From the IMG/VR virus record IMGVR_UViG_3300009500_000011, positions 104,585 to 168,584 of that record: a DNA stretch of 64,000 nt. One strand, written 5' to 3'. Source of the DNA: a virus (lineage: Duplodnaviria; Heunggongvirae; Uroviricota; Caudoviricetes). Shown one piece after another: positions 11,147-63,738 of this stretch; positions within the stretch are counted from its first letter, which is position 1; each line of letters opens with the position of its first letter. The notes beneath the pieces were generated by a model. It worked only from the letters and a program-made list of their open reading frames with translations, did no database searches and was not told the origin of the DNA. The translations under genes were made by a program, and so were the position numbers.

Positions 11147-11659
11147 ATGGATTTTTTAGTTGGCGATATATTAGTTTTAAAACAAGATGCTCTTGACCTT
11201 GAAGATAAAACTGGCAAAACAATTTTATATCCCGCAGGTTCCGAAGCTGAAATTATACAAATAAAAAATGAAAATGAATATCATCTGCAATTTCCAGATG
11301 CCAAAATATGGCCTCATGACTTGGCAACTTTATTGATTTTCTTTAATCGTAAAAAAGATGGTAAAAATGTTTATACTCGCCAGGTTTCAGAGTATGGTAC
11401 GCCACCAAAAGAGCTTGCTTTTTATATACCTAGAGAAGTTGATTGGCGTAAAAACTATAGGTATACTGTCAGAATTGAAGCAGAAGATTGTGGCTTTAAA
11501 AAATTGATTTGTCCTAGTTGTTTCAATGACCTGGGAGAAAATGGCGAACCAGATAATGAAGGTTTGCAAAAATGTCAAAAATGTGGTACAATGGTTCTCC
11601 CGATAGACCCATTAACATTCAAGTATCCACATGATGACGGAAATGAACACACAACTTAA
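11147..11659 (+). CDS. hypothetical protein with C-terminal zinc ribbon
   Basis: CPSC...CQKCG pair of CxxC motifs. Confidence 0.45.
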   Translation: MDFLVGDILVLKQDALDLEDKTGKTILYPAGSEAEIIQIKNENEYHLQFPDAKIWPHDLATLLIFFNRKKDGKNVYTRQVSEYGTPPKELAFYIPREVDWRKNYRYTVRIEAEDCGFKKLICPSCFNDLGENGEPDNEGLQKCQKCGTMVLPIDPLTFKYPHDDGNEHTT

Positions 11660-12935
11660 GAGTAATTCTCAAAAATTCTTAGAAGCAGCAAATTGGGCTC
11701 TTGTAAAAGAACGCTTTGGCGAAGATACAGGAGTTAATATTCGTCGCGCTTCTATAGATAATGTGCAAAATATTACGCTTTTCAATGGTTCAAAAGGTTT
11801 ACTTTTTGATGGATATTCGTTTCCTGAACAAGAACATCTTAAAGGCTTGATTGTTCACGAAGTATTAGGAAGCGCACATTCGGTTATAGCGGCATGTTTT
11901 CCTAAATTCTATAACTATGGCGAACCTGCTGAAAAACAAAAGCATCTTGAATACTTAAATGACGATTCTATGAGTGTGTTATTTGCTAAGAAAGAGGATG
12001 GAGTAAATATTCGTCCTTATTTCAATGCTGCAACAAATAGAGTTGAATTTGCTACGCGCGGAACCTTGCTTGTTGTTTCTGATATTGAAGAAACGTCTAA
12101 TCTTGATTATGGCGCAATGGCTCGTTCAATTGCAGAAGAAAAATATCCAATTCTTTTGGATGAGGAATTTGTAAAGAAATACTCTTGTATTTTTGAAATG
12201 ATTCATCCTGATTCCAAAATTCTTACGGATTATGGACAAAGAAAAGACCTTATTCTTCTGTCAGTATTTGATTTAGAAAATAACTGCTATGAATTTTCGC
12301 GTGAATGGGTAGCATCTTGGGCAAATATAATTGGGTTAAATTATGTTGAATATTGGTTTGACCAATATGCGCCTGTTTCTGAATTTTCTTCTTTAGTTGA
12401 AAAACTACTTAAAAAATGGAACGAAACGGATGTAGAAGGTTCTGTTGTTATATTTGTAAACTCTGAAGCAGAACCTGTATATCGTCTTAAAGTTAAAAAT
12501 GCTTATTATTTACAAATGCTTCGACTTGCAAAATTTTGCACTTTGAAGAATTTAGTCTCAATCATGGAAGAAAATAACTTTTCAAATTGGGAACAACTTC
12601 GTGCATATTTGTACGAAAGCCCTTCAATGAATGAAGAATTAGAAATGGCATATAAGGCTCATTTTGATGTATATGAAAATTGGTTAGCAAATCTTGAAAT
12701 CGAAAAACAAAATGTTTTAAAAGAATATCAAGAATTACCTTCTTTCGAATTACAAAAAGATTTTGCTTTATACATCTTAAAAGATGGCGCTTATCCATAC
12801 AATCCGCTATTCTTTGCTATTCGCAAATGGTTAGCAGAAGCCAAAAATCCTAATTTAGAACAATTCTTTGAAGAAAATGTTAAAGCAACAGTAATGTTGA
12901 AGAAAATCTATCCACTATCGGAAGTAGAGGAATAA
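11631..12935 (+). CDS. ATP-dependent RNA ligase (Rnl1-like)
   Basis: Covalent nucleotidyltransferase motifs: motif I KKEDGVN (T4 Rnl1 has KEDG), FEMIHP, motif IV-like VEGSVVIF, motif V-like RLKVKNAYY. Confidence 0.7.
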   Translation: MMTEMNTQLKSNSQKFLEAANWALVKERFGEDTGVNIRRASIDNVQNITLFNGSKGLLFDGYSFPEQEHLKGLIVHEVLGSAHSVIAACFPKFYNYGEPAEKQKHLEYLNDDSMSVLFAKKEDGVNIRPYFNAATNRVEFATRGTLLVVSDIEETSNLDYGAMARSIAEEKYPILLDEEFVKKYSCIFEMIHPDSKILTDYGQRKDLILLSVFDLENNCYEFSREWVASWANIIGLNYVEYWFDQYAPVSEFSSLVEKLLKKWNETDVEGSVVIFVNSEAEPVYRLKVKNAYYLQMLRLAKFCTLKNLVSIMEENNFSNWEQLRAYLYESPSMNEELEMAYKAHFDVYENWLANLEIEKQNVLKEYQELPSFELQKDFALYILKDGAYPYNPLFFAIRKWLAEAKNPNLEQFFEENVKATVMLKKIYPLSEVEE

Positions 12936-12936
12936 C

Positions 12937-13443
12937 ATGGGTTTATTTGATTATGTAATTTGTGATTATCCTTTACCTGATTCATATAAAGGGAGTATTA
13001 AGTTTACAACTAAAGACTTAAATTCTTTTATGAATACTTTTACTATTACTGAATCAGGTCAACTTTTAGAACACAAATTTCATTTTGAAGAAGTTCCTGA
13101 AGAAGAACGTCCTAAATTTAATACACCCGAATGGAATTCTGATAACGAAACAATTAAAACTTGGACACGCTTAATGGGTTCAAAGATTCAAGTATTTGAT
13201 GGCTTGGAACCCTACCTTTACACAGGTGCTGTTTGTTTTTACGGTTCAAATTTAGATAGTTGTAATTCGGATGGATATTATACTACAGAAAATGATGAAC
13301 CTTATGAATACAAAGAATACATTGCTTTGTTTAAAAATGGTATGTTAATTAACATTATTGAAAATAATGAAAAAGACAATGAATTTTTTACTCCAGAATG
13401 TTTTTTAACACAAAAACAGTATAAAGAAAAATATAATGAATGA
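12937..13443 (+). CDS. hypothetical protein
   Basis: Intact ORF between the RNA ligase and the Thg1-like gene. Confidence 0.45.
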   Translation: MGLFDYVICDYPLPDSYKGSIKFTTKDLNSFMNTFTITESGQLLEHKFHFEEVPEEERPKFNTPEWNSDNETIKTWTRLMGSKIQVFDGLEPYLYTGAVCFYGSNLDSCNSDGYYTTENDEPYEYKEYIALFKNGMLINIIENNEKDNEFFTPECFLTQKQYKEKYNE

Positions 13444-14197
13444 CTCGCTTGGCGACCGAATGAAAACATATTATGAAGATGTGACGCGGCATTACTTGCC
13501 TCGGCGAACTCATACAATTATTCGGTTAGATGGAAAATCTTTTCATACGTATACAAAAAAATTAGCAAGACCATTTGATGCTGGTTTGATTGAAGATATG
13601 CAAAAAACCACAATTCGACTTTGTGAGAATATTCAGGGCGTTGTTCTTGGTTATACGCAATCTGATGAAATATCTCTTGTTTTATGTGATTATAAAGAAA
13701 AAGAAACTGAATCCTTTTTTAAAGGTAATATTCAAAAAATTTGTTCAGTATCTGCAAGTATGGCTACTGCATTCTTCAATGCTTTTAGACAAGCCCGTAA
13801 TTTTGAAGGTGGTCCAGCATTTTTTGATGCTAGAGTATTTACTATTCCAGAAAAGGTAGAAGTTCTTAATTATCTTATTTGGAGACAAAAAGATGCAACA
13901 AGAAATTCTATTCAAATGGCCGCACAATCTGTTTATTCTCATAAAGAACTTAATAAAAAGAAGTGGTCTGATTTAAATGAAATGCTTTTTCAGAAAGGTA
14001 TTAATTTTAATGATTATTCTTCTTCTGAAAAACGTGGTTCTTTAATTGTGAAAGAATATTTTGAAGGGGAAGCCTATGATAAGCGTAAGCAAGAAAATGT
14101 TATAGTTACTCGGTCGCGTTGGATTGTAGAACCTGAAACACCTCTTTTTACTGCTGAAGAAAATAGAGATTTATTTGAAAGGTATTTATATAAATAA
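13436..14197 (+). CDS. tRNA-His guanylyltransferase (Thg1)-like protein, 3'-5' nucleotidyltransferase
   Basis: LGDRMK.YE....., IIRLDGKSFHTYTK, GYTQSDEISLVL. These are the hallmark Thg1/TLP motifs. Confidence 0.85.
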   Translation: MNDSLGDRMKTYYEDVTRHYLPRRTHTIIRLDGKSFHTYTKKLARPFDAGLIEDMQKTTIRLCENIQGVVLGYTQSDEISLVLCDYKEKETESFFKGNIQKICSVSASMATAFFNAFRQARNFEGGPAFFDARVFTIPEKVEVLNYLIWRQKDATRNSIQMAAQSVYSHKELNKKKWSDLNEMLFQKGINFNDYSSSEKRGSLIVKEYFEGEAYDKRKQENVIVTRSRWIVEPETPLFTAEENRDLFERYLYK

Positions 14198-17235: not shown

Positions 17236-17371
17236 TTTTGAGTTGCGCTAGAATAAAGTTACTTCGTCTGTAAAACGAGGAATCCGGGTTCGAGTCCCGG
17301 TCGGAATCTAACGATTTCGGTACTTTAATCGGTAAAATCCTAAACACTTTGTTCGCTACCTTCGCTCAAAA
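17236..17371 (+). ncRNA. Y-RNA-like / YrlA-like element with tRNA-mimic module, embedded in the tRNA array
   Basis: TTTTGAG/CTCAAAA terminal helix. TTGCG...AAAGT pairs with ACTTT-gtt-CGC, followed by TACCTTCG, the same 3' box as element B. TTACTTCGT box. Anticodon-like arm CTTCGT-CTGTAAA-ACGAGG. Perfect T arm CCGGG-TTCGAGT-CCCGG. Confidence 0.55.
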
Positions 17372-25197: not shown

Positions 25198-25274
25198 GGG
25201 ATAGTAGGAGAATTGGCATATCTACCACGTTTAGACCGTGGGTTCTGTGGGTTCAAGTCCCACCTATCCTACCA
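25198..25274 (+). tRNA. type I (5-nt variable loop) tRNA with anticodon TAG
   Basis: Acceptor GGGATAG/CTATCCT, perfect arm CCACG-TTTAGAC-CGTGG, variable GTTCT, T arm GTGGG-TTCAAGT-CCCAC, A73, CCA. Confidence 0.65.
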
Positions 25275-25587: not shown

Positions 25588-26253
25588 ATGCCTTTAAAAA
25601 TCGTGTGTATTTCTGATACTCACAATTCATTAAATCAACTTGAACTTAATGGATTAAAAATGCCAGAAGCAGATGTTCTTATACATGCTGGTGATTTAAC
25701 ATTTAAAGGCCAACTTCCAGAAATTTCAAAAGCAAATTATCATTTAGGGAAAATTAAACATAAGTATAAACATGTGGTTTTTGTTCCAGGAAATCATGAT
25801 TTTCTTTTTCAAAAAGATGAAGCAATTGCAAGGGCTGTATTGTCTAATGCAACCGTATTAATTGACCAACCTTTAGAAATTGAAGGTTATAAATTTTACG
25901 GTAGTCCTTGGCAACCCTGGTATCAAGATTGGGCATTTAATTTTAAAAAATATTCAGCAGGAGGAAAAGAACAGTCAATTCGTATTTGGGGAGCTATTCC
26001 TGAAGAGACTGATATTTTAATTACTCATGTCCCGCCATATATGATGATGGATAAAACTGAATATGGTGAAAATATTGGTGATGCTTGGCTTGCTAAACGT
26101 TTGAAAGAACTTCCTAATCTTAAACTTCATGTTTTTGGGCATGTTCATGAAAGATACGGTAAAGTAGAAGCAAAAATTACCTTTGTTAATGCAGCTTCTA
26201 TGAACCGTAGATATAGCATTGTGAATCCACCAATTGTTATAGATTTGCCTTAA
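25588..26253 (+). CDS. metallophosphoesterase (calcineurin-like)
   Basis: Motifs ISDTHN, GDLTFKG, GNHD, GHVHE. Confidence 0.85.
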   Translation: MPLKIVCISDTHNSLNQLELNGLKMPEADVLIHAGDLTFKGQLPEISKANYHLGKIKHKYKHVVFVPGNHDFLFQKDEAIARAVLSNATVLIDQPLEIEGYKFYGSPWQPWYQDWAFNFKKYSAGGKEQSIRIWGAIPEETDILITHVPPYMMMDKTEYGENIGDAWLAKRLKELPNLKLHVFGHVHERYGKVEAKITFVNAASMNRRYSIVNPPIVIDLP

Positions 26254-29682: not shown

Positions 29683-30408
29683 ATGATTAATACATATGTT
29701 GTAGGGGACGTACACGGTTGCTACGATTCTCTAATCGAATTACTAGAATTGGTTAATTTTAATGTTGACCGAGATATGTTAATAAGTGTTGGCGACCTTG
29801 TAGATAAGGGTCCAAAAACCAAGGAAGTTTTAGACTTCTTTATGAAGTATGGTTATCCTGTGGTTAGAGGCAATCATGAAGATAAGATTGCTCGTCTTGC
29901 CAAGGGAAACAAGATTAAGATTAACTCTGAAATTCAAGATACTGTTGAACAACTTGGAGAAGGTTGGCAGGAAACGTATGGCCTATTTCTTCAATCAATG
30001 CCATTATATCTTCCGTTTGAAGATGCTTTGGGTAAGGGATATATTGTCCACGGTGGCGTTGCACCAGACCTTCCTATCGAAAGGCAAAGTTCTAATTTCT
30101 TAATGCGTCTTAGAACGTGGCCTTTTGAAGAATATGTACGTGGGGTAGAGGCAACTCAACCTCCTTGGCAGACTGAATATAGAGGTCACTTAGGAACAAT
30201 ACTTCACGGGCATATTCCAAGTGCAGGCGTAATGTATGCAGGTTCTGAAAAGCATGGAAATCCCAATGTATATTCATTGGATGGTGGATGTGTTTACGGG
30301 AATGACCGTCCTTGGGGCGGTAGTCTTCGGGCTATTAAACTTGATACTAGAGAGATTTTCTCTGTTCCCGGTAATCAAGAACAAACAGAACATTATAACA
30401 GTTTGTGA
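29683..30408 (+). CDS. PPP-family Ser/Thr phosphatase / ApaH-like diadenosine tetraphosphatase
   Basis: GDVHGC, GDLVDKGP, RGNHE motifs (lambda-phosphatase/ApaH family). Confidence 0.85.
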   Translation: MINTYVVGDVHGCYDSLIELLELVNFNVDRDMLISVGDLVDKGPKTKEVLDFFMKYGYPVVRGNHEDKIARLAKGNKIKINSEIQDTVEQLGEGWQETYGLFLQSMPLYLPFEDALGKGYIVHGGVAPDLPIERQSSNFLMRLRTWPFEEYVRGVEATQPPWQTEYRGHLGTILHGHIPSAGVMYAGSEKHGNPNVYSLDGGCVYGNDRPWGGSLRAIKLDTREIFSVPGNQEQTEHYNSL

Positions 30409-30888: not shown

Positions 30889-31186
30889 TGATAAGTGCGA
30901 AACATGCGATGGTAAAGGTACATGGGAAGTACCCTGGGATGAAGTTGATGATGCAACCAAGGCTATGCTTGGTGGCATTGATGACTTGATAAGTAAATTT
31001 CCTGGTTCTAAATTGGGTCCATTAGTTTATAATTGTCCTGATTGTCAACAAACTGGTTCGCAAGCCGTTCGAGAACAATGGTCAATAAATCGTTTAGACC
31101 CTAAAAAACATGAGTATGTTTTTCAATGTACTGATGGTGACCCTTGTTGGGAATGTAAAGCAGAGAAAAAAGAGCATTTAAAATGA
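30878..31186 (+). CDS. small zinc-binding protein (DnaJ-type CxxCxG-like)
   Basis: CETCDGKG and CPDCQQTG motifs. Confidence 0.4.
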   Translation: MNIDDKCETCDGKGTWEVPWDEVDDATKAMLGGIDDLISKFPGSKLGPLVYNCPDCQQTGSQAVREQWSINRLDPKKHEYVFQCTDGDPCWECKAEKKEHLK

Positions 31187-32001
31187 TTGATTATACAACA
31201 AAACCGGATTTAGGAAAATTATCTGAATCAGAATTTTTTGATTTAGATAATCCGCCTTTTGATATTCAAAAACATTGTTTATATTCAGTCATATCTGGTT
31301 CAAAAGCATATGGATTAGATACGCCTACAAGCGATACTGATATTCGTGGAGTTGTATATTTACCAGAAAGAATGTTGCTTGGTTTAGGTAGATTTGAACA
31401 AATTGAAAATCAAAGCAAAGATATTTGTTATTACAGTCTACAAAAACTTTTTAATTTGGCATTAAAAAATAATGTTCATGCAATGGAAATGCTTTGGATG
31501 CCAAAAAGAACGGTTAACTTTATACATCCTTTATTTGAGCAAGTTCTAGATAATAAAAATTTATTTATGTCTAAACGCATTGCATATACTTGTGGTGGAT
31601 ATGCTTTCCAACAAGTTAAGGTTGCCTTTACAAAGATGAAAAATAAGACTGGTAGAGTTAGTTTATTAGAACAATTTGGCTATGATACTAAATTTATGAG
31701 TCATAGTATTCGTATTTATAGAATGGCCCGTGAAGCATTAGAAACAGGTTTTCTAAATGTCTATCGACCTGATAGAGAGTTTTTACTTGATGTTAAGGTT
31801 GGTAAATATAAACTTGAAGATATTGTTGTTATGGGTAAAAATTCAGAAGGTAAAGATACTTTTGTTGGTGGATTATTAGCAGAAGAATTGCGACTTTTTA
31901 ATGAAGCACTTGCAAAAACAAAATTACCAACCGACCCTCCTTTCCAAAAAATTGAAAATCTTTTAATTAAAGTTCAAAAAGAAGCTTTATCTTTTAATTA
32001 A
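31183..32001 (+). CDS. Pol-beta superfamily nucleotidyltransferase (RlaP/PF10127-like)
   Basis: ISGSKAYGLDTPTSDTDIRGV matches the GS..YG......SD.D..G NTase signature. This family is often annotated as RNA-repair associated. Confidence 0.7.
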   Translation: MIDYTTKPDLGKLSESEFFDLDNPPFDIQKHCLYSVISGSKAYGLDTPTSDTDIRGVVYLPERMLLGLGRFEQIENQSKDICYYSLQKLFNLALKNNVHAMEMLWMPKRTVNFIHPLFEQVLDNKNLFMSKRIAYTCGGYAFQQVKVAFTKMKNKTGRVSLLEQFGYDTKFMSHSIRIYRMAREALETGFLNVYRPDREFLLDVKVGKYKLEDIVVMGKNSEGKDTFVGGLLAEELRLFNEALAKTKLPTDPPFQKIENLLIKVQKEALSFN

Positions 32002-45030: not shown

Positions 45031-45258
45031 AAATTTGAGTTGCGTTAGAGTACGGTTACTTCTTAATTGACATATACCTAATGTCCCACCTCAATAAAGG
45101 AGTAAAATCTTTTATTGGGCTAGTCACCTGAGTCGTGGTGAGACGCATTGTGCAAATGTTAGTGGAGGCTCGTAAAATAAGCCTAGAACTAAAAATTCTT
45201 AGACTTAAGATGTAAAAATCAAAAGTCGGTCCCGTACTTGCCCTCTTCTCTCAAATTT
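45031..45258 (+). ncRNA. Y-RNA-like element A (upstream of Ro60 gene)
   Basis: Terminal helix AAATTTGAG/CTCAAATTT. 5' TTGCG..AGTACGG pairs with 3' CCGTACT. Conserved TTACTTCTT box. Same architecture as elements B, C and the one at 17236. Confidence 0.55.
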
Positions 45259-45275
45259 ATTTTAAAAATTAAAAA

Positions 45276-45346
45276 CTTGGGTTGCGACAGATTACAGATA
45301 CTTCTTATATGGAATAAAAAAGCTGTATTCGCTACCTTCTCCCGAG
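45276..45346 (+). ncRNA. Y-RNA-like element B (minimal hairpin version)
   Basis: CTTGGG/CCCGAG terminal helix. Internal loop tt / TACCTTCT. GCGACAG pairs with CTGT-att-CGC. ATACTTCTT box in the apical region. Confidence 0.55.
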
Positions 45347-45362
45347 TATAAATTTTATAATA

Positions 45363-45456
45363 TTTAAATTGCGTTAATTACAGATACTTCTTGTATATTG
45401 GTTCGAGTCCATTAAGTGTAGTCGGTACACAACTGTAGTTGTTCCATTCGTTTAAA
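45363..45456 (+). ncRNA. Y-RNA-like element C with tRNA-like T arm
   Basis: ATTTAAA/TTTAAAT terminal helix, TTGCG...TTACAG pairing with CTGTAG, ATACTTCTT box, TGG-TTCGAGT-CCA T-arm mimic, GTGTA-gtcgg-TACAC hairpin. Confidence 0.5.
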
Positions 45457-45464
45457 TTTTATTT

Positions 45465-45498
45465 AATCCTTGGGAATATATTTCTCAAGGATTTTTTT
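45465..45498 (+). terminator. intrinsic terminator closing the Y-RNA-like array
   Basis: AATCCTTGGGA...TCTCAAGGATT followed by TTTTT. Confidence 0.6.
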
Positions 45499-45519
45499 GT
45501 TGTCATAAAGGAAAAAAGA

Positions 45520-47205
45520 ATGAAATACAATACTAAAACAGTAAATGCTGGTCCAGGAACAAAAATGATAAATCTTGCAGGCGGAGAAGCTTTTAAAGTT
45601 GATAATCGTACTGCATTATATTTAACTTCTGCAACTTCTTTAGGTGGCGGTCAAGGAAATAAATATTATGTTTCTGCAAATCAAGAATACAAAAATATTC
45701 TTGAACTAATTGAAAAGGTTTCCGCTCAAGACCCAGAATTTATTTTCCAATTGGCTGCATATTGTCGTCAAGATTTATACCTTCGTAGTATTCCAACGGT
45801 ATTATTTATCGAAGGTATTCGTGCAATGCATAAGCAAAAAAAGGCCAATGCACCATATCCAGTAGATGCATCTAAGTATGCAAATGCTATTTTTGGTCGT
45901 GCTGATGAAATTGTTGAAGCAGTTGCATATTGGCTTGGAGTTGAAGGCCATCACAAATTGCCTTCCCCTCTTCGTAAATCTTTGACCATTGCTTTAAATT
46001 CATTTGATGAATACCGCTTGCTTAAATATAATCAAGAAGATAAGCAAGTTACATTTAAAGATATTGTTCGTCTTGTGCATCCAGAACCAAAAACTGATGT
46101 GCAAAGTGCAATTTTCAAATACTTCATCAAGGATGAAATCAGTCCAGAATTAATGCCAAAGGCAACTGCCCGCAAGGCTTTGCTTTCACGTACTCAATTT
46201 GATGAAGAAGCACAACGCTTGATGAGAGATTCATCTGCTACTTGGGAAACTGTAATTGCTAAATTCGGTTCGACTAAAGAAATTTGGGAAGCAGTTATTC
46301 CAAATATGGGATACATGGCTTTATTACGTAATCTTAATAATTTTCTTAAAAAAGAAGTAGATTTAGATTTAGTAATTCCTCGCCTTGTGAATCCGCAAGA
46401 AATTCGTAAAAGCAAGCAATTGCCTTTCCGTTTTTACACAGCAATGAAACAACTTGGTGTAGAAGATAACAATAAGAATTCTACGATGACATATTATGGA
46501 TATTCCGATTCAGTAAAAACAGCATTTGAAAAATGGCGTAATGTAAATTCTAGCGATGGAATTTCTCGTTTACGTAATGCTCTTGGTGTTGCTATGAATA
46601 TTGCAGTAGAAAATGTTCCTCACCTTTCAGGTCGTACCGTTGTTGCGGCAGACCTTTCTGGTTCTATGAGTCAACCTCTTAATAACAAATCAAATGTAAC
46701 TTATCGTGAAATCGCTTGTATTATGGCTGGTATTGCTGGTTCAATAGCACCAGATAATGTAATTTGTGGATTTGGTTGTTCATTTGCTGTTGCTAAAAAA
46801 GGCAAAGATATTCTTGAAACTGCAAATAATATTGATAAATTAAATGTTGGAATGTCAACGGATGCATGGCGTATTCTTGATTACTTGCTTACAAACAAAA
46901 TTTTTGTAGATAGAGTCATGTATTTTACAGATACACAATGTTATAATTCATATGGGGGCGCAAATTTAAACGAACTTTGGAAAAAATACAAAGTTCTTTG
47001 CCAATCAACTGGTAAAAAAGTTCCTGTTCTTTATGAAGTAAATCTTGCAGGTGGTAATACATCTAGTTTTAATTCTGAACAAAGAGTTGCTACCATTGGT
47101 GGATGGTCTGAAAGAATTTTTGATTTAATTACTACTTATGAAACTGACCCTCGTCAAGCAATAAGTAAAATTAAAGAAAAATATTCAGATTTAGTATCTG
47201 TTTAA
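45520..47205 (+). CDS. rsr: Ro60-related protein (TROVE domain + vWA), Rsr-like
   Basis: Start trimmed to MKYNTKT behind AAAGGAAAAAAG. TROVE-like helical repeat region (FIFQLAAYCRQDLYLRSIP). C-terminal MIDAS AADLSGSMS. Confidence 0.85.
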   Translation: MKYNTKTVNAGPGTKMINLAGGEAFKVDNRTALYLTSATSLGGGQGNKYYVSANQEYKNILELIEKVSAQDPEFIFQLAAYCRQDLYLRSIPTVLFIEGIRAMHKQKKANAPYPVDASKYANAIFGRADEIVEAVAYWLGVEGHHKLPSPLRKSLTIALNSFDEYRLLKYNQEDKQVTFKDIVRLVHPEPKTDVQSAIFKYFIKDEISPELMPKATARKALLSRTQFDEEAQRLMRDSSATWETVIAKFGSTKEIWEAVIPNMGYMALLRNLNNFLKKEVDLDLVIPRLVNPQEIRKSKQLPFRFYTAMKQLGVEDNNKNSTMTYYGYSDSVKTAFEKWRNVNSSDGISRLRNALGVAMNIAVENVPHLSGRTVVAADLSGSMSQPLNNKSNVTYREIACIMAGIAGSIAPDNVICGFGCSFAVAKKGKDILETANNIDKLNVGMSTDAWRILDYLLTNKIFVDRVMYFTDTQCYNSYGGANLNELWKKYKVLCQSTGKKVPVLYEVNLAGGNTSSFNSEQRVATIGGWSERIFDLITTYETDPRQAISKIKEKYSDLVSV

Positions 47206-48495: not shown

Positions 48496-49146
48496 ATGGA
48501 AACTCAAAAAACCTTCTTTACTAGTGATAATCACTTCAATCATGAGAATATAATTAAATTTTGTTTTCGTGGTTATGGTTCTTATGAAGAAAGAAAAAAT
48601 AACCCAGAACTTCATTTCAAATCAATAGGTGAAATGAATGAAATTATGGTTCAACGTTGGAATGAAGTGGTTGGACCAACCGATACTGTATATGTACTCG
48701 GTGATTTTGCTATGGGTGATAAATATAAGTCTGTTGAATATTTTAATAGGCTAAATGGAACAAAACATCTAGTTCTTGGAAATCATGATTGTAGTAACTT
48801 TGTCAAAAAAGAAGTTCACCCTGCAATCCTTGAAATGGGTTTTGCTTCAATTACTGAAGAACTATACGCAAAAATAGATGGTCGAAATGTATGGATGGCT
48901 CACATTCCATATGGTCATAATAATGATAAACGTAACTATCTTCGTGAAAAAGTTAAGCCAGGTTTTTCTCTTAAAAAAGATGTTATTCTAAGTGGCCATG
49001 TACATGATAAATGGATTATAAATAATCATAATTCCATTAATGTGGGAACAGATGTTTGGGATTTTTACCCTCAAACCTTGTCTCAACTTCTGGAAAAAAC
49101 AAAAGACCTTCCTCGTTTTGATTCTTCAATATTTCTTCCTGTTTAA
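48496..49146 (+). CDS. metallophosphoesterase
   Basis: FTSDNHFNH, LGDF, GNHD, GHVHD motifs. Confidence 0.8.
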   Translation: METQKTFFTSDNHFNHENIIKFCFRGYGSYEERKNNPELHFKSIGEMNEIMVQRWNEVVGPTDTVYVLGDFAMGDKYKSVEYFNRLNGTKHLVLGNHDCSNFVKKEVHPAILEMGFASITEELYAKIDGRNVWMAHIPYGHNNDKRNYLREKVKPGFSLKKDVILSGHVHDKWIINNHNSINVGTDVWDFYPQTLSQLLEKTKDLPRFDSSIFLPV

Positions 49147-51186: not shown

Positions 51187-51263
51187 GGCCGTATACCAGC
51201 CTAATTTCCTAAATTAGTAACTGTAGATGGACAAGGTAGGTTCGAATCCTATTGCGGCCTCCA
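51187..51263 (+). tRNA. atypical tRNA-like gene, CCT anticodon-like loop, no canonical D arm
   Basis: Acceptor GGCCGTA/TGCGGCC and T arm GTAGG-TTCGAAT-CCTAT, then T73 and CCA, are good. The only anticodon-type hairpin, CTAAT-TTCCTAA-ATTAG, starts 5 nt after position 9 and leaves an 18-nt 3' spacer. Confidence 0.45.
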
Positions 51264-52602: not shown

Positions 52603-53054
52603 GGGATATAGCAGTTTTGACTGGAAAACCAAGGGCTATAAGACAAGCAGTAGAGCATTAGGCTACTATAAAAAATGCAAACAAACAATCGCAGACTTTT
52701 CTGTAACTGGGTTCAACGACTTCATCGCTCGCGAAGCGGTCGCTGCCTAAAACCTCTCTAGGCTCGTAGAGTAATACGGGCTAAGGGAAACATAGTTTCC
52801 CTACCTTATCCGTGGGGCCACACGGAAGGTTCGATTCACGTTTCAGAGGTTACTACTCTGTAGCACCATAAACGAGAATATTACCCTTATGAATAAGGGC
52901 GACCGGAGGGCTAGGTCGTAAATGGCGCTCATTGTAGGCTGAAATTTCCTACAAAACCAAGTCCTGGTTGAGGGAATAAATATCAGGAAGCTTGTATAAT
53001 CAAATAGTTCGAAGATTCTAGGACTCGGGGGGCGGCTCCCCGAATATTCCACCA
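52603..53054 (+). ncRNA. ssrA: tmRNA (SsrA) candidate, one-piece
   Basis: 5' GGGATAT pairs with 3' ATATTCC-ACCA and gives G3-U70. H-type pseudoknot AGTAG-a-GCATT-agg-CTACT-ataaaa-AATGC at 52649-52678. Then a 12-nt A-rich spacer ending ATC and resume codon GCA at 52691. The tag frame reads ADFSVTGFNDFIAREAVAA, with stop TAA at 52748-52750 in hairpin GCCTA/TAGGC. GGAC precedes the T stem TCGGG/CCCGA. Own promoter and terminator. Confidence 0.75.
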
Positions 53055-57443: not shown

Positions 57444-57681
57444 ACAACAATCTTTGTACAATTCTTGTAAAATTAATTTTAATACTTTAAAACAAAATGT
57501 TAAAATTTTGTTGGGTGATAATAAAAAAGTTTTAGATGCCTTACAAGTTGTTGAATTAGAACTAATTAAAGTCAATCCTTATTGTAAAATAACTTCAATT
57601 AAAAATGTTACAGAAGAAGAAAACAATTCTCCTGTTCTAGAAAAAGAGAATACTACTGATGAAAGCAAAACAAGCAATTAA
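57433..57681 (+). CDS. hypothetical protein
   Basis: Intact ORF overlapping both neighbours by a few codons. Confidence 0.35.
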   Translation: MLGRQQSLYNSCKINFNTLKQNVKILLGDNKKVLDALQVVELELIKVNPYCKITSIKNVTEEENNSPVLEKENTTDESKTSN

Positions 57682-57853
57682 AATGCTAAAAAACATAGGA
57701 TTTGATATAGAGCGTATGGGAAAAGGTGACCATATATTATTGCGGAGTCCTGATAATAAAAGAATTGTTCTGCAAAATGGTGCATTAGAATTATCTCCAG
57801 GTTTGACAGGTAAAGTTAGAAGTCTTTTGCAAAAAGGTAAGTTAAATGAGTGA
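57659..57853 (+). CDS. HicA-like mRNA interferase toxin
   Basis: 64 aa. K..IK.L...GF.....GKGDH......D......L.....L..G pattern of the YcfA/HicA family. Confidence 0.55.
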   Translation: MKAKQAIKMLKNIGFDIERMGKGDHILLRSPDNKRIVLQNGALELSPGLTGKVRSLLQKGKLNE

Positions 57854-58130: not shown

Positions 58131-58213
58131 CGGCGGGTTCCCGTAGCGGCGAACGGTCTGCTTTTACATGGCAGCATACCACATCGTGGGTTCGAGTCCC
58201 ACCCTGCCGACCA
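58131..58213 (+). tRNA. tRNA-Val(TAC) with 11-nt variable loop
   Basis: Acceptor CGGCGGG/CCTGCCG, arm CTGCT-TTTACAT-GGCAG, variable CATACCACATC, T arm GTGGG-TTCGAGT-CCCAC, CCA. Promoter at 58092-58120. Confidence 0.7.
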
Positions 58214-58230: not shown

Positions 58231-58560
58231 ATGGCAAAAGTAACAAAAAAATTAGAGCATTGCCCTGATTGTTATGTTAAGATAAATGAACGCCATCATA
58301 AAGGCTGTGACATTGAAAGATGTACGGTTTGTGGCGGTCAAAGACTTGTTTGCGGTTGTAAAGGTCATAAGCCTTGGAGTGCTGTTTGGACCGGATTTTG
58401 GCCCGGTGTAATTGAATGTCAAGTTTTAGGATGGTATTCAAAATTTATTCCGAATTATGGTTGGCGTCAAACTACCCAAGATGACCCAGATGGAATGGAA
58501 GATTTAAACCGATGGGTTATCTATAACATGGAAGTTCATCAGTTGACAAATCTTTCCTAA
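58231..58560 (+). CDS. hypothetical Cys/His-rich protein
   Basis: ORF 58168..58560 trimmed to ATG (MAKVTKK); the first 21 codons are tRNA-Val. CPDC...CTVCGG...CGC. Confidence 0.4.
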   Translation: MAKVTKKLEHCPDCYVKINERHHKGCDIERCTVCGGQRLVCGCKGHKPWSAVWTGFWPGVIECQVLGWYSKFIPNYGWRQTTQDDPDGMEDLNRWVIYNMEVHQLTNLS

Positions 58561-58571
58561 TTTAGTATCAT
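58543..58571 (+). promoter_or_regulatory. sigma70-type promoter for the leader plus tRNA-Arg
   Basis: TTGACA-17 nt-TATCAT. Confidence 0.55.
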
Positions 58572-58577
58572 ATAATT

Positions 58578-58680
58578 GTAAGCACCAAGCGGGTAAGAGA
58601 ATGAATGTAAGAAGTTCTCTCTTCGTAGTGCAATTCCGTGGTTCTTGTCGTCTTAAACCGAACGGCGCTTTTTCGGTTAA
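58578..58680 (+). ncRNA. structured leader RNA upstream of tRNA-Arg(ACG)
   Basis: Lies after promoter 58543-58571. Hairpins AAGAGAA/TTCTCTT, GCAC/GTGC and AACCGAA/TTCGGTT. No ORF. Confidence 0.35.
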
Positions 58681-58685
58681 AATAT

Positions 58686-58776
58686 CTCGGTGTGGTGTAA
58701 CTGGATAGCACAAAACGCTACGAACGTTTAGGGAGCCGCAAGGCCATTGGGGGTTCGAATCCCTCCATCGAGGCCA
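58686..58776 (+). tRNA. tRNA-Arg(ACG) on a type II (long variable arm) scaffold
   Basis: Acceptor CTCGGTG/CATCGAG, perfect arm AAACG-CTACGAA-CGTTT, 19-nt variable region with GCC-GCAA-GGC hairpin, T arm GGGGG-TTCGAAT-CCCTC, CCA. 91 nt. Confidence 0.65.
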
Positions 58777-59009
58777 ATTAAAAAATTCCTTCTAGTAAAG
58801 AAGGGTAAGAGCATGAGTTAGGCGGGTAAACTGTACTATGCCAGGCCAAGGTAGTGGCAGCACAAATCTACTGTAGAGCAAGAGTCGAACAGTTTACATA
58901 AGAACACCTAGCAAACTGGGAGAGTTGAGGCCCAGGGATGCCGCCGAACATTCACTCTGTACAATTCGGCATTCAAAATTTCAAACTGCAAATTGAGTGC
59001 AGTATTTAA
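58777..59009 (+). ncRNA. structured non-coding region downstream of tRNA-Arg(ACG)
   Basis: Nested long-range pairings GGCGG/CCGCC and GTAAACTGT/ACAGTTTAC. Hairpins GCCGAA/TTCGGC and CTGCA/TGCAG. Shares a GGGTAAGAG box with the upstream leader. No ORF. Confidence 0.35.
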
Positions 59010-59525: not shown

Positions 59526-59626
59526 TATAATCGGGGGTAGGCAAGCGGTGAGCCATCTGGCCTGGACTCATTGTTATTAATCCAAATCAATTGAGTATTT
59601 CTCCTTTAGAAGGAGATTATTCAAAA

Positions 59627-60082
59627 ATGAAAACTTGTTTAAACTGCAAACAAATTAAAGACGAATCTTTATTTAGATGGAAAAATAAATCCAAGGGTTG
59701 GAAAAAAGCTAATTGTATAGAATGTGATAAAGTCTACGATAGAAAATATCATCAAAATCGACCATTAGAAAAGAAAAAAAATAAATTAATTTTAAGTAAA
59801 AAAAGAATAGACGATATAACAGAAAAAATTTGTTTACTTTTATTAAATAAAAAATGTATTGATTGTGGTCAATCTGATATTAGAGCTTTAGATTTTGACC
59901 ATCAAGAAAATAAAACTAATAATATTGGTAATCTTACTAGTATTAAATGGAGTTGGGAAAGAGTTCAAGAAGAAATCGAAAAATGTGTAGTTAGATGTGC
60001 TAATTGTCATAGAATTAAAACTCATAAAGAGAGAAAAACACGAAAATATTTATTTGGTTTAAAATATAATCTCTGGGAGTAA
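59627..60082 (+). CDS. HNH homing-type endonuclease (paralog 3 of 3)
   Basis: Trimmed to the ATG after RBS AAGGAGA. CLNC...CIEC ribbon, LDFDHQEN, CANCHRIKTH. The last 10 nt overlap tRNA-Pro. Confidence 0.7.
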   Translation: MKTCLNCKQIKDESLFRWKNKSKGWKKANCIECDKVYDRKYHQNRPLEKKKNKLILSKKRIDDITEKICLLLLNKKCIDCGQSDIRALDFDHQENKTNNIGNLTSIKWSWERVQEEIEKCVVRCANCHRIKTHKERKTRKYLFGLKYNLWE

Positions 60083-63194: not shown

Positions 63195-63225
63195 TTTTTC
63201 TTGTGCATTCTGGTACAATTTGTGT

Positions 63226-63738
63226 ATGAAAATTACTGATAAATACGTTTTGTTTTTTGGGCCAGAAGATTGTCCTTCCCAATGGTATCCTGTAAAGTTC
63301 AAAACTAGATTATTCGATTTTGAAAATTTAGAATTTAATTGTAGTGAACAATTCATGATGGCTGCAAAAGCATTATTCTTTGATGACAAAGAATCATTTG
63401 TTAAAATCATGAATACGTCTAGCCCCAATCAACAAAAATCTTTAGGTCGAAATGTTCAAGGTTTTGATAAAGATAAATGGAATGCTGTTTGCCGACCTTT
63501 AGTGACAGTTGGCAATATGGCTAAATTTACTCAAAATGATGATTTAAAGCAGTTTATGTTAGACAATGAGGGGAAAATTTTTGTTGAGGCTTCTCCTTAT
63601 GACGATATTTGGGGTGTTAAACTTGGGGCCAACGACCCTAGAATTTTAGACCCTTCTAAATGGAGAGGGACTAATTGGCTTGGAGAAATTTTGACTAGAA
63701 TTAATATTATAATTTGCAAAAAGGAGAAGTCAAAATGA
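63226..63738 (+). CDS. NADAR (YbiA-like) domain protein
   Basis: SEQFMMAAKA, SP...K.LGR, W......V...N.AKF.QN..L...L......VEASP.D.IWG, G.N.LGE.L motifs of the YbiA/NADAR family. Confidence 0.8.
   Translation: MKITDKYVLFFGPEDCPSQWYPVKFKTRLFDFENLEFNCSEQFMMAAKALFFDDKESFVKIMNTSSPNQQKSLGRNVQGFDKDKWNAVCRPLVTVGNMAKFTQNDDLKQFMLDNEGKIFVEASPYDDIWGVKLGANDPRILDPSKWRGTNWLGEILTRINIIICKKEKSK

Follow-up and report, generated by a model that had tools for sequence, protein, structure and literature searches.

A virus-encoded tRNA-Arg(ACG) with a class II-like variable arm, and remodelled tRNA-Arg genes in other phages

The tRNA-Arg(ACG) gene considered here is 91 nt long and lies in a 64,000-nt stretch of viral DNA (Caudoviricetes; IMG/VR record IMGVR_UViG_3300009500_000011, positions 104,585 to 168,584), which is called the window below and whose numbering is used throughout. 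It is one of the 32 tRNA genes called in the window by ARAGORN, at 58686-58776 on the + strand, and its extra bases build a hairpin in the variable region. An earlier note, made from the letters of this DNA, had described it as an Arg(ACG) species with a class II-type arm, embedded in a dedicated transcription unit of structured RNAs. The first part of this description has been strengthened by comparison, since the arm recurs in a close relative and in other phage lineages and covaries there. The relative lies on two contigs from two other samples, L127 and L128, and was compared in alignment A1. The features of the locus, including the flanks and a stretch free of open reading frames (ORFs), are as follows.

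58543..58571, + strand: putative sigma-70-like promoter (consensus scan, 11/12; conserved in L127/L128)
58579..58677, + strand: leader, a 99-nt lineage-specific insertion with the first GGGTAAGAG at 58591-58599 (missing from L127/L128, alignment A1)
58686..58776, + strand: tRNA-Arg(ACG) (ARAGORN; Rfam, 49.4 bits; 90/91 identical in the relatives, independent samples)
58730..58748, + strand: variable region, 19 nt with hairpin (the insertion seen by Rfam; site of the relative's one substitution, GCAA to GCGA)
58788..58804, strand not assigned: hairpin CCTTCT-AGTAA-AGAAGG 3' of the tRNA (in the relative, CCTATT-ATTAA-AATAGG)
58805..59009, strand not assigned: conserved ORF-free element, the trailer (95.1% identical to the relative; no Rfam match)
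58985..59003, + strand: terminator-like hairpin ACTGCA-AATTGAG-TGCAGT, then ATTTAATT (pattern scan; T run weak)

The stretch 58686-58776 is a real virus-encoded tRNA-Arg(ACG). The Rfam tRNA model (RF00005) scores it at 49.4 bits against a gathering score of 29, which places it within the family, with model positions 1-71 all aligned, and ARAGORN gives the same cloverleaf; the 91-nt gene of the earlier note is thus recovered by both programs. Read off the sequence, the acceptor stem has 7 bp with C1-G72 as first pair, U8 is present, and the D stem of 4 bp carries the D loop AACUGGAUA with G18, G19 and A20. The anticodon stem of 5 bp closes the loop CUACGAA (anticodon at 58720-58722), the T stem of 5 bp closes the loop UUCGAAU, the discriminator is G73 and the CCA is encoded. 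The extra bases form a single insertion, placed by Infernal with the Rfam model between positions 44 and 45. The earlier note had itself named an alternative, a standard fold of 76-77 nt with an intron or an insertion elsewhere; it was rejected because Infernal assigns every extra base to the variable region.

The variable region covers 19 nt (58730-58748) and holds the hairpin GCC-GCAA-GGC at 58735-58744, exactly as first described. The extra 14 nt thus give a compact, GNRA-capped hairpin, with a short stem of three G-C pairs and a possible fourth. For bacteria, the division into class I and class II tRNAs, which reserves the long arm for Leu, Ser and Tyr, is taken as a rule, and no cellular tRNA-Arg is known to be of class II. 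The present tRNA resembles bacterial class II tRNAs in shape, having a variable region of more than 10 nt with a stem-loop that projects from the core, but it falls outside the class II family (Leu, Ser, bacterial Tyr, Sec), since it has an ACG anticodon, arginine identity elements and a short arm stem. A resemblance to the Leu and Tyr arms of the same genome had also been proposed; it holds for Tyr(GTA), Leu(CAA) and Leu(AAG), whereas Leu(TAA) and Ser are not GNRA-capped. Set beside canonical bacterial tRNA-Arg(ICG), such as that of E. coli, it has three loops in common, the D loop (xCUGGAUA, including A20), the anticodon loop (CUACGAA) and the T loop (UUCGAAU); it differs in having 19 nt in place of a 5-nt variable loop and C1-G72 in place of the usual G1-C72.

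The relatives were recognised by a homologue of the downstream 94-aa ORF, 84% identical, on both contigs, which share with the window the order Val(TAC)-ORF-Arg(ACG)-ORF. The tRNA-Arg(ACG) is 90/91 identical between window and relative, the flanking ORFs 89.1% and 90.6%, and the sole change lies in the loop of the arm, where GCAA becomes GCGA and the GNRA character is kept. The Val(TAC) tRNA is identical between the window and L127. Moreover, exact copies of two flanking proteins are found on contigs of a public sequencing run, and the occurrence of the same sequence class in independent samples speaks against an assembly artefact. For the upstream 109-aa protein there are no relatives in IMG/VR; two distant homologues were found, which are not syntenic.

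As regards decoding, bacterial arginyl-tRNA synthetase (ArgRS) recognises A20 in the D loop together with C35 and G36 or U36, and the set A20, C35, G36 is intact here, as is the loop CUACGAA of TadA substrates, read directly. The codons CGT, CGC and CGA account for 164/317 arginine codons in the 14 long ORFs of the window, in which this is the sole Arg(ACG) tRNA called, and, in its ribonucleotide reductase (aligned to PDB 1xje), they encode the arginine residues of four motifs, LRP, RRGAL, RRxG and YRxD. In this genome CGN codons stand for arginine. Their presence at conserved arginines and in about half of all arginine positions argues for an arginine tRNA and not a recoder, and the simplest reading is a working tRNA charged by the host ArgRS, probably serving as an elongator.

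A switch of identity, by which the long arm and G73 would make the tRNA a substrate of SerRS (or LeuRS/TyrRS) and CGN codons would partly be read as another amino acid, appears extremely improbable. Long arm and G73 are indeed elements essential for SerRS recognition (PMC5389517), and both are present in this tRNA. They are accompanied, however, by the intact arginine set A20, C35, G36 and by an arm stem of just 3-4 bp, and CGT, CGC and CGA occupy invariant catalytic-site arginines of the reductase, codon evidence that argues against serine decoding. In addition, the second pair is U2-A71 and not the G2-C71 typical of E. coli tRNA-Ser, and G73 in place of A73 speaks against Leu or Tyr identity.

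The same features bear on the idea of a tRNA-like RNA without a role in translation, which would serve a host defence or a phage factor as sensor ligand, sponge or decoy. Everything that charging and decoding require is intact, the CCA is encoded, and no other Arg(ACG) tRNA is called in a window where CGN makes up half of the arginine codons, so that such a role is very unlikely, even if the shape is unusual, C1-G72 is uncommon as a first pair, and phage tRNAs can neutralise defence systems (PARIS and retron-Eco7 literature).

Several groups of unusual tRNAs invite comparison. The allo-tRNAs of bacteria and phages combine a long variable arm and G73 or U73 with non-serine anticodons, including those for arginine codons; they have 8/4 or 9/3 acceptor/T stems and a D arm like that of tRNA-Sec, and are thought to be serylated (PMC5389517). 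The present tRNA shares with them the long arm (19-nt variable region) and G73, but it has 7/5 stems and a canonical Arg-type D loop, and it serves codons that mean arginine. The nev-tRNAs, V-arm-containing tRNAs of nematodes and other eukaryotes (Hamashima et al., cited in PMC5389517), join a class I-type anticodon to a long variable arm and are reported to be charged with leucine; the likeness is in that combination, but they are eukaryotic and would mis-decode, and nothing suggests the latter for tRNA-Arg(ACG). Finally, the tRNA-Tyr of phage T5 has a variable loop which differs from that of its host and which is reported to make it resistant to a defence nuclease (PMC13096335). There an existing class II arm is altered and the effect was shown by experiment, unlike the present case, in which an arm has been added to a class I-type tRNA known from its sequence. 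No description of a phage tRNA-Arg with a class II-like arm was found in an incomplete survey of the literature.

The recurrence of such tRNAs was assessed with a pattern consisting of the canonical, Arg-type D loop, the loop CUACGAA and, after a long gap, the T loop. Matches were obtained in 12 IMG/VR contigs (mostly of 90-360 kb), in 52 metagenome contigs and in 5/185,579 species genomes, four of these being metagenome-assembled genomes. After deduplication 35 distinct long-arm Arg(ACG) tRNAs were left, with variable regions of 14-24 nt, and 25/35 have a GNRA tetraloop closed by at least two pairs (GAAA 14, GCAA 8, GAGA 2, GCGA 1). Two narrower searches added nothing: a lineage-specific tRNA pattern had no match among the metagenome contigs and missed even its own source contig, and a tighter pattern, run on IMG/VR, returned only unrelated tRNAs.

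Within one lineage of 11 sequences, 3/5 arm pairs have changed on both sides and 94.5% of the cells are paired, so that in pairing and covariation the arm helix equals the remaining helices of the cloverleaf. For the whole structure, covariation in this lineage reaches 0.373; shuffles give 0.170 (0/500), and sliding the partners gives at most 0.113. Pairing and covariation together argue that the long arm is a maintained structure, and the comparison extends this reading to several phage lineages. Furthermore, the near-absence of such tRNAs from cellular genomes (5/185,579) suggests a benefit specific to phages rather than a general tolerance.

The main competing explanation is that the arm is of no use, being a neutral hairpin inserted at the one site that tolerates length and kept folded because an unfolded insert would harm folding. 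Expansions of the variable region are in fact common and diverse across phage tRNA isotypes. In the sample of fetched phage loci, long variable regions were seen in Cys (9/29), Ile (7/45), Lys (6/71), His (5/38), Val (5/48), Thr (4/53) and Glu (4/62) tRNAs, the isotypes including Ile(TAT), Val(TAC), Thr(TGT) and others beyond Arg. Moreover, Thr(TGT) and Val(TAC) of the window have unstructured 11-nt loops, and GNRA loops are the most stable of caps. On the other side, hairpins are easily lost to slippage, yet the arm has outlasted many compensatory substitutions in the 11-sequence lineage, comparable arms occur in many distinct lineages, and cellular genomes are nearly devoid of them. On balance a neutral insertion is considered possible, though unlikely.

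Some further tRNAs of the window deviate from the usual pattern. The Thr(TGT) and Val(TAC) genes just mentioned, at 23092-23174 (+) and 58131-58213 (+), have 83 nt each. Lys(CTT), at 25104-25188 (+), has 85 nt and is a class I-type tRNA with the arm GAGG-GAAA-CCTC; Lys(CTT) tRNAs with covarying, GAAA-capped arms are also found at the loci L033 and L037. Adjoining this Lys(CTT), which has acquired an arm, is a leucine tRNA without a class II arm, Leu(TAG), at 25198-25274 (+), 77 nt long and with a 5-nt variable loop and A73. ARAGORN also calls a tRNA at 18948-19021 (+) whose anticodon loop has 8 nt ('atcg'; 35.2 bits with Rfam), and at 17242-17308 (+) a 'Tyr(gta)' of 67 nt that contains several mismatches and is not among the Rfam hits at E up to 1.

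The flanks were examined in view of the transcription unit mentioned above. The consensus promoter claimed upstream was borne out as a pattern match: the promoter-like TTGACA-17-TATCAT at 58543-58571 agrees with the consensus at 11/12 positions in a pattern scan, and TTGACA and the -10 region are kept in L127/L128, where the -10 lies about 10 nt from the tRNA. Comparable promoters stand directly before four other tRNA genes of the window, His, Val(TAC), Ala and Thr(GGT), the first three with a similarly short spacing. A dedicated sigma-70-like promoter for tRNA-Arg(ACG) is plausible and agrees with the way in which single tRNA genes of this genome are habitually provided with a promoter. The hairpin-rich leader of about 100 nt was not borne out, since the segment folds no better than its shuffles (z -0.07) and is absent from the closest relative. 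Comparison of 58579-58677 with the rest of the window, with the fetched loci and with the insertion of the relative gave no similarity, and Rfam gave no match. The leader is best regarded as a recent insertion and not as part of a tRNA device, and promoter and tRNA together would make up the gene.

Downstream, 58777-59009 contains no + strand ORF of at least 30 aa, in agreement with the earlier description of an ORF-free region. The hairpin at 58788-58804 has 5 changes in 17 nt in the relative, 4 of which form two compensatory pairs, and it is the only flank structure to carry such pairs; a T run follows it on the - strand of the window, and the relative is without that run. The trailer diverges from the relative about half as much as the flanking ORFs do (95.1% identity against 89.1% and 90.6%). 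In the relative, an unrelated, AT-rich insertion of 109 nt separates the tRNA from the trailer, which still adjoins the downstream ORF. It is thus best described as a separate, modestly constrained noncoding element that would travel with that ORF. The proposal of a single transcription unit of structured RNAs joined by a shared box was abandoned for these reasons, the leader being lineage-specific and the trailer split off in the relative.

As to folding, the nested long-range helices proposed for the downstream region fared unevenly: the inverted repeat GTAAACTGT/ACAGTTTAC exists, but on the + strand the region has a z of -0.85, and there the 9-bp helix is interrupted in the relative by a bulge and a C.A mismatch. 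The - strand of 58784-59009 folds better than shuffles (z -2.0; 5/200), and an antisense small RNA may be encoded there. The strand signals in the trailer are divided, one substitution favouring the - strand (C.A on +, G.U on -) and two the + strand. In the terminator-like stem at 58985-59003, 4-5 pairs are kept in the relative, with C-G changed to U.G on the + strand. A protein-coding trailer was rejected: there is no + strand ORF, and a 42-aa ORF on the - strand spans a 1-nt indel in the relative. Nor did the trailer show an Rfam match or a T-loop-like motif that would point to a Y RNA partner of the phage Ro60 protein. A 390-nt ORF-free gap directly upstream of the Ro60 gene (45049-45438) could hold a Y RNA, although Rfam finds no match there.

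The box GGGTAAGAG does occur in both flanks, as had been noted, with exactly two copies in 64 kb, at 58591 and 58803; the second (58803-58811) overlaps the 5' edge of the trailer by two bases. The match extends to 13/14; it is nominally unusual for one flank against the other alone (rough estimate, about 0.01-0.02) and unremarkable against the window (BLAST E 2.7-6). The box is weak evidence: one-mismatch sites are as frequent as expected by chance (7 against 6.06), and the upstream copy lies in the insertion missing from the relative. A check of whether Infernal would place the flanks in a known Rfam family was negative for both of them, the only hit being algC (17.9 bits against a gathering score of 33.8; E 1.9), and an E-value scan of the whole window gave nothing within either flank. 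A repeat family was rejected too, since neither the window nor 120 fetched loci contain paralogues of the flanks.

These data make quite improbable a composite RNA operon, in which promoter, structured leader, tRNA and structured trailer would work together through a functional GGGTAAGAG box in the flanks. The two exact copies, 212 nt apart, alone in 64 kb and with their 13/14 extended match, speak for such an operon; the promoter is conserved and the trailer somewhat so, and the upstream box is complementary to 58948-58958. The relative, however, lacks the leader with its box and has 109 unrelated nucleotides between tRNA and trailer, the + strand folds no better than shuffles, Rfam matches none of it, the one-mismatch count equals chance and the 9-bp helix is not kept on the + strand.

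Other changes were seen nearby. The window has an HNH endonuclease gene at 59591-60082 (+) which is missing from the relative; the relative has instead a TnpB/IS605 OrfB insertion (L127 3834-5027) and an additional tRNA-Pro. The tRNA region is a hot spot of mobile-element insertion, in keeping with the indels of 99 nt and 109 nt next to tRNA-Arg. That these two are one relocated segment was ruled out, their sequences being unrelated.

A first, broad pattern scan returned mostly a different kind of gene, tRNA-Arg-like and of about 76-86 nt, without an ARAGORN call. These genes form a family with a rewired core, found at the loci L001-L120 and L191-L262 (for example L006 249-327, - strand) and in more than 100 viral contigs; counts for the family are lower bounds, each of two pattern scans having given at least 120 matches. 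Its members have a 7-bp acceptor stem and U8-A9. In place of the D stem stands a helix of 3 bp around the anticodon arm; one of its strands, of 3 nt, is paired with the three nucleotides immediately preceding a conserved, D-loop-like UAAYUGGA, which is situated 3' of the anticodon arm. In 26 sequences, 3/3 pairs of the enclosing helix have changed on both sides and 96.2% of the cells are paired. The anticodons are ACG, UCU, UCG and CCU, all of them for arginine, in a search pattern biased to Arg-type D loops. One member reaches 30.7 bits with the Rfam tRNA model, with the D arm deleted. The family is present in 12 GenBank phage records (11 isolates), unannotated in every one; these include Xanthomonas XacN1 and Xoo-sp13, Stenotrophomonas DLP_6, Rhizobium RHph_I1_18, Microbacterium Zooman and others. 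Two members are given here.

AP018399.1 47795-47859 (L263 1501-1565): rewired member from GenBank
Window 51187-51263, + strand: rewired tRNA-Arg(CCU) (Rfam tRNA, 27.9 bits against a gathering score of 29, D arm deleted; missed by ARAGORN)

The member of the window reads, in its 5' half, acceptor strand GGCCGTA, TA, C-CAG-C and anticodon arm CTAAT-TTCCTAA-ATTAG and, in its 3' half, TAA-CTG, TAGATGGA, CAAG, T arm and TGCGGCC-T-CCA, with CAG pairing with CTG around the anticodon arm. Just upstream stands a promoter-like TTGAAT-17-TGTATAAT. Tested against this family, tRNA-Arg(ACG) is like it in having a remodelled core and in keeping A20, anticodon loop, T arm and acceptor, but it is not a member, since its D arm is ordinary, a stem of 4 bp with its loop, and precedes the anticodon arm. 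The phage thus carries two tRNA-Arg genes which are predicted to be non-canonical in different ways. In an incomplete survey no description of a D-armless phage tRNA-Arg was found in the literature.

The genome itself looks like that of a large phage equipped with an extensive module for translation and RNA repair. Its G+C content in the window is about 32%, and it is not represented among GenBank phages, as neither DNA comparison (near or distant) nor the 1191-aa neighbouring protein gave a match there. In addition to the tRNAs, the window encodes a primase, a ribonucleotide reductase, PhoH, a Band-7 protein and the HNH endonuclease, together with the following RNA-repair and quality-control set.

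11631-12935: T4 Rnl1-like RNA ligase
13436-14197: Thg1-like enzyme
31183-32001: RlaP nucleotidyltransferase
45439-47205: Ro60/TROVE
25588-26253: calcineurin-like phosphoesterase
29683-30408: calcineurin-like phosphoesterase
48496-49146: calcineurin-like phosphoesterase
63220-63738: NADAR

At 52603-53054 (+), in a gap free of ORFs, there is a tmRNA-like match over the full model, which scores 45.7 bits (gathering score 47; E 6e-15) and has no ARAGORN call. Moreover, a 64-aa ORF at 57659-57853 (+) matches a PHROG 'toxin' family and has a weak HicA_toxin annotation in Pfam.

Taken together, we favour with moderate confidence the view that this is a functional phage tRNA-Arg(ACG) with its own promoter, whose arm would be retained as an altered core surface against tRNA-directed nucleases. 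The gene would be transcribed from its sigma-70-like promoter, RNase P would remove the 5' leader, and the 3' end would be trimmed to the encoded CCA. Deamination of A34 would give an ICG anticodon, and the tRNA could then decode CGU, CGC and CGA. The variable region would be the sole site of the L-shape to tolerate extra length. Class I synthetases such as ArgRS bind tRNA with the variable face toward the solvent, so that charging, EF-Tu binding and use by the ribosome should be unaffected. By altering the surface of the core, the arm would allow nucleases, whether of a host defence or of the phage's own shut-off of its host, to distinguish phage from host tRNA-Arg; an alternative role for it would be to stabilise the tRNA core.

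Evasion of nucleases by the arm is plausible. The RNA-repair genes and the tmRNA-like gene of the window point to tRNA damage as a pressure, and long-arm Arg(ACG) tRNAs are almost confined to viral sequence. [quoted passage not shown]

Several points weigh against this proposal. Toxins, MenT3 among them, can be drawn to a long variable arm (PMC11541572). The anticodon loop CUACGAA is unaltered, so the arm is not obviously protective against nucleases that read only the anticodon stem-loop. The earlier note had pointed to enzymes of the colicin D type, and colicin D cuts within that loop, between positions 38 and 39. The upkeep of folding in an inserted segment would also give covariation and GNRA loops, without a positive function. 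Finally, the close relative yields just one informative substitution in the tRNA, and the counts of long-arm Arg tRNAs depend on one strict pattern.

A broader idea, which is put forward tentatively and judged rather doubtful, is that large phages possess shape-camouflaged tRNA-Args in two forms, one with a GNRA-capped arm and the other with a rewired core. Both would be altered in the D/variable core, by which a nuclease aimed at tRNA-Arg, of a host defence or of the host shut-off by the phage, would know its target, and both would still satisfy host ArgRS, TadA, EF-Tu and the ribosome. If this were true, phage translation would survive the depletion of tRNA-Arg.

The architecture of tRNA is among the most conserved features of life, and viruses try tRNA shapes that cells do not; this exploration appears to extend to Lys, Cys, Ile and others, and some remodelled tRNA genes are overlooked entirely by standard annotation. 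The wider pattern of remodelled phage tRNA-Arg scaffolds is of more interest than tRNA-Arg(ACG) alone. If the arm protects against tRNA-targeting immunity, it would represent a new principle of counter-defence, in which the scaffold is changed and not the anticodon loop or the level of expression, and it may provide design rules for orthogonal or nuclease-resistant tRNAs.

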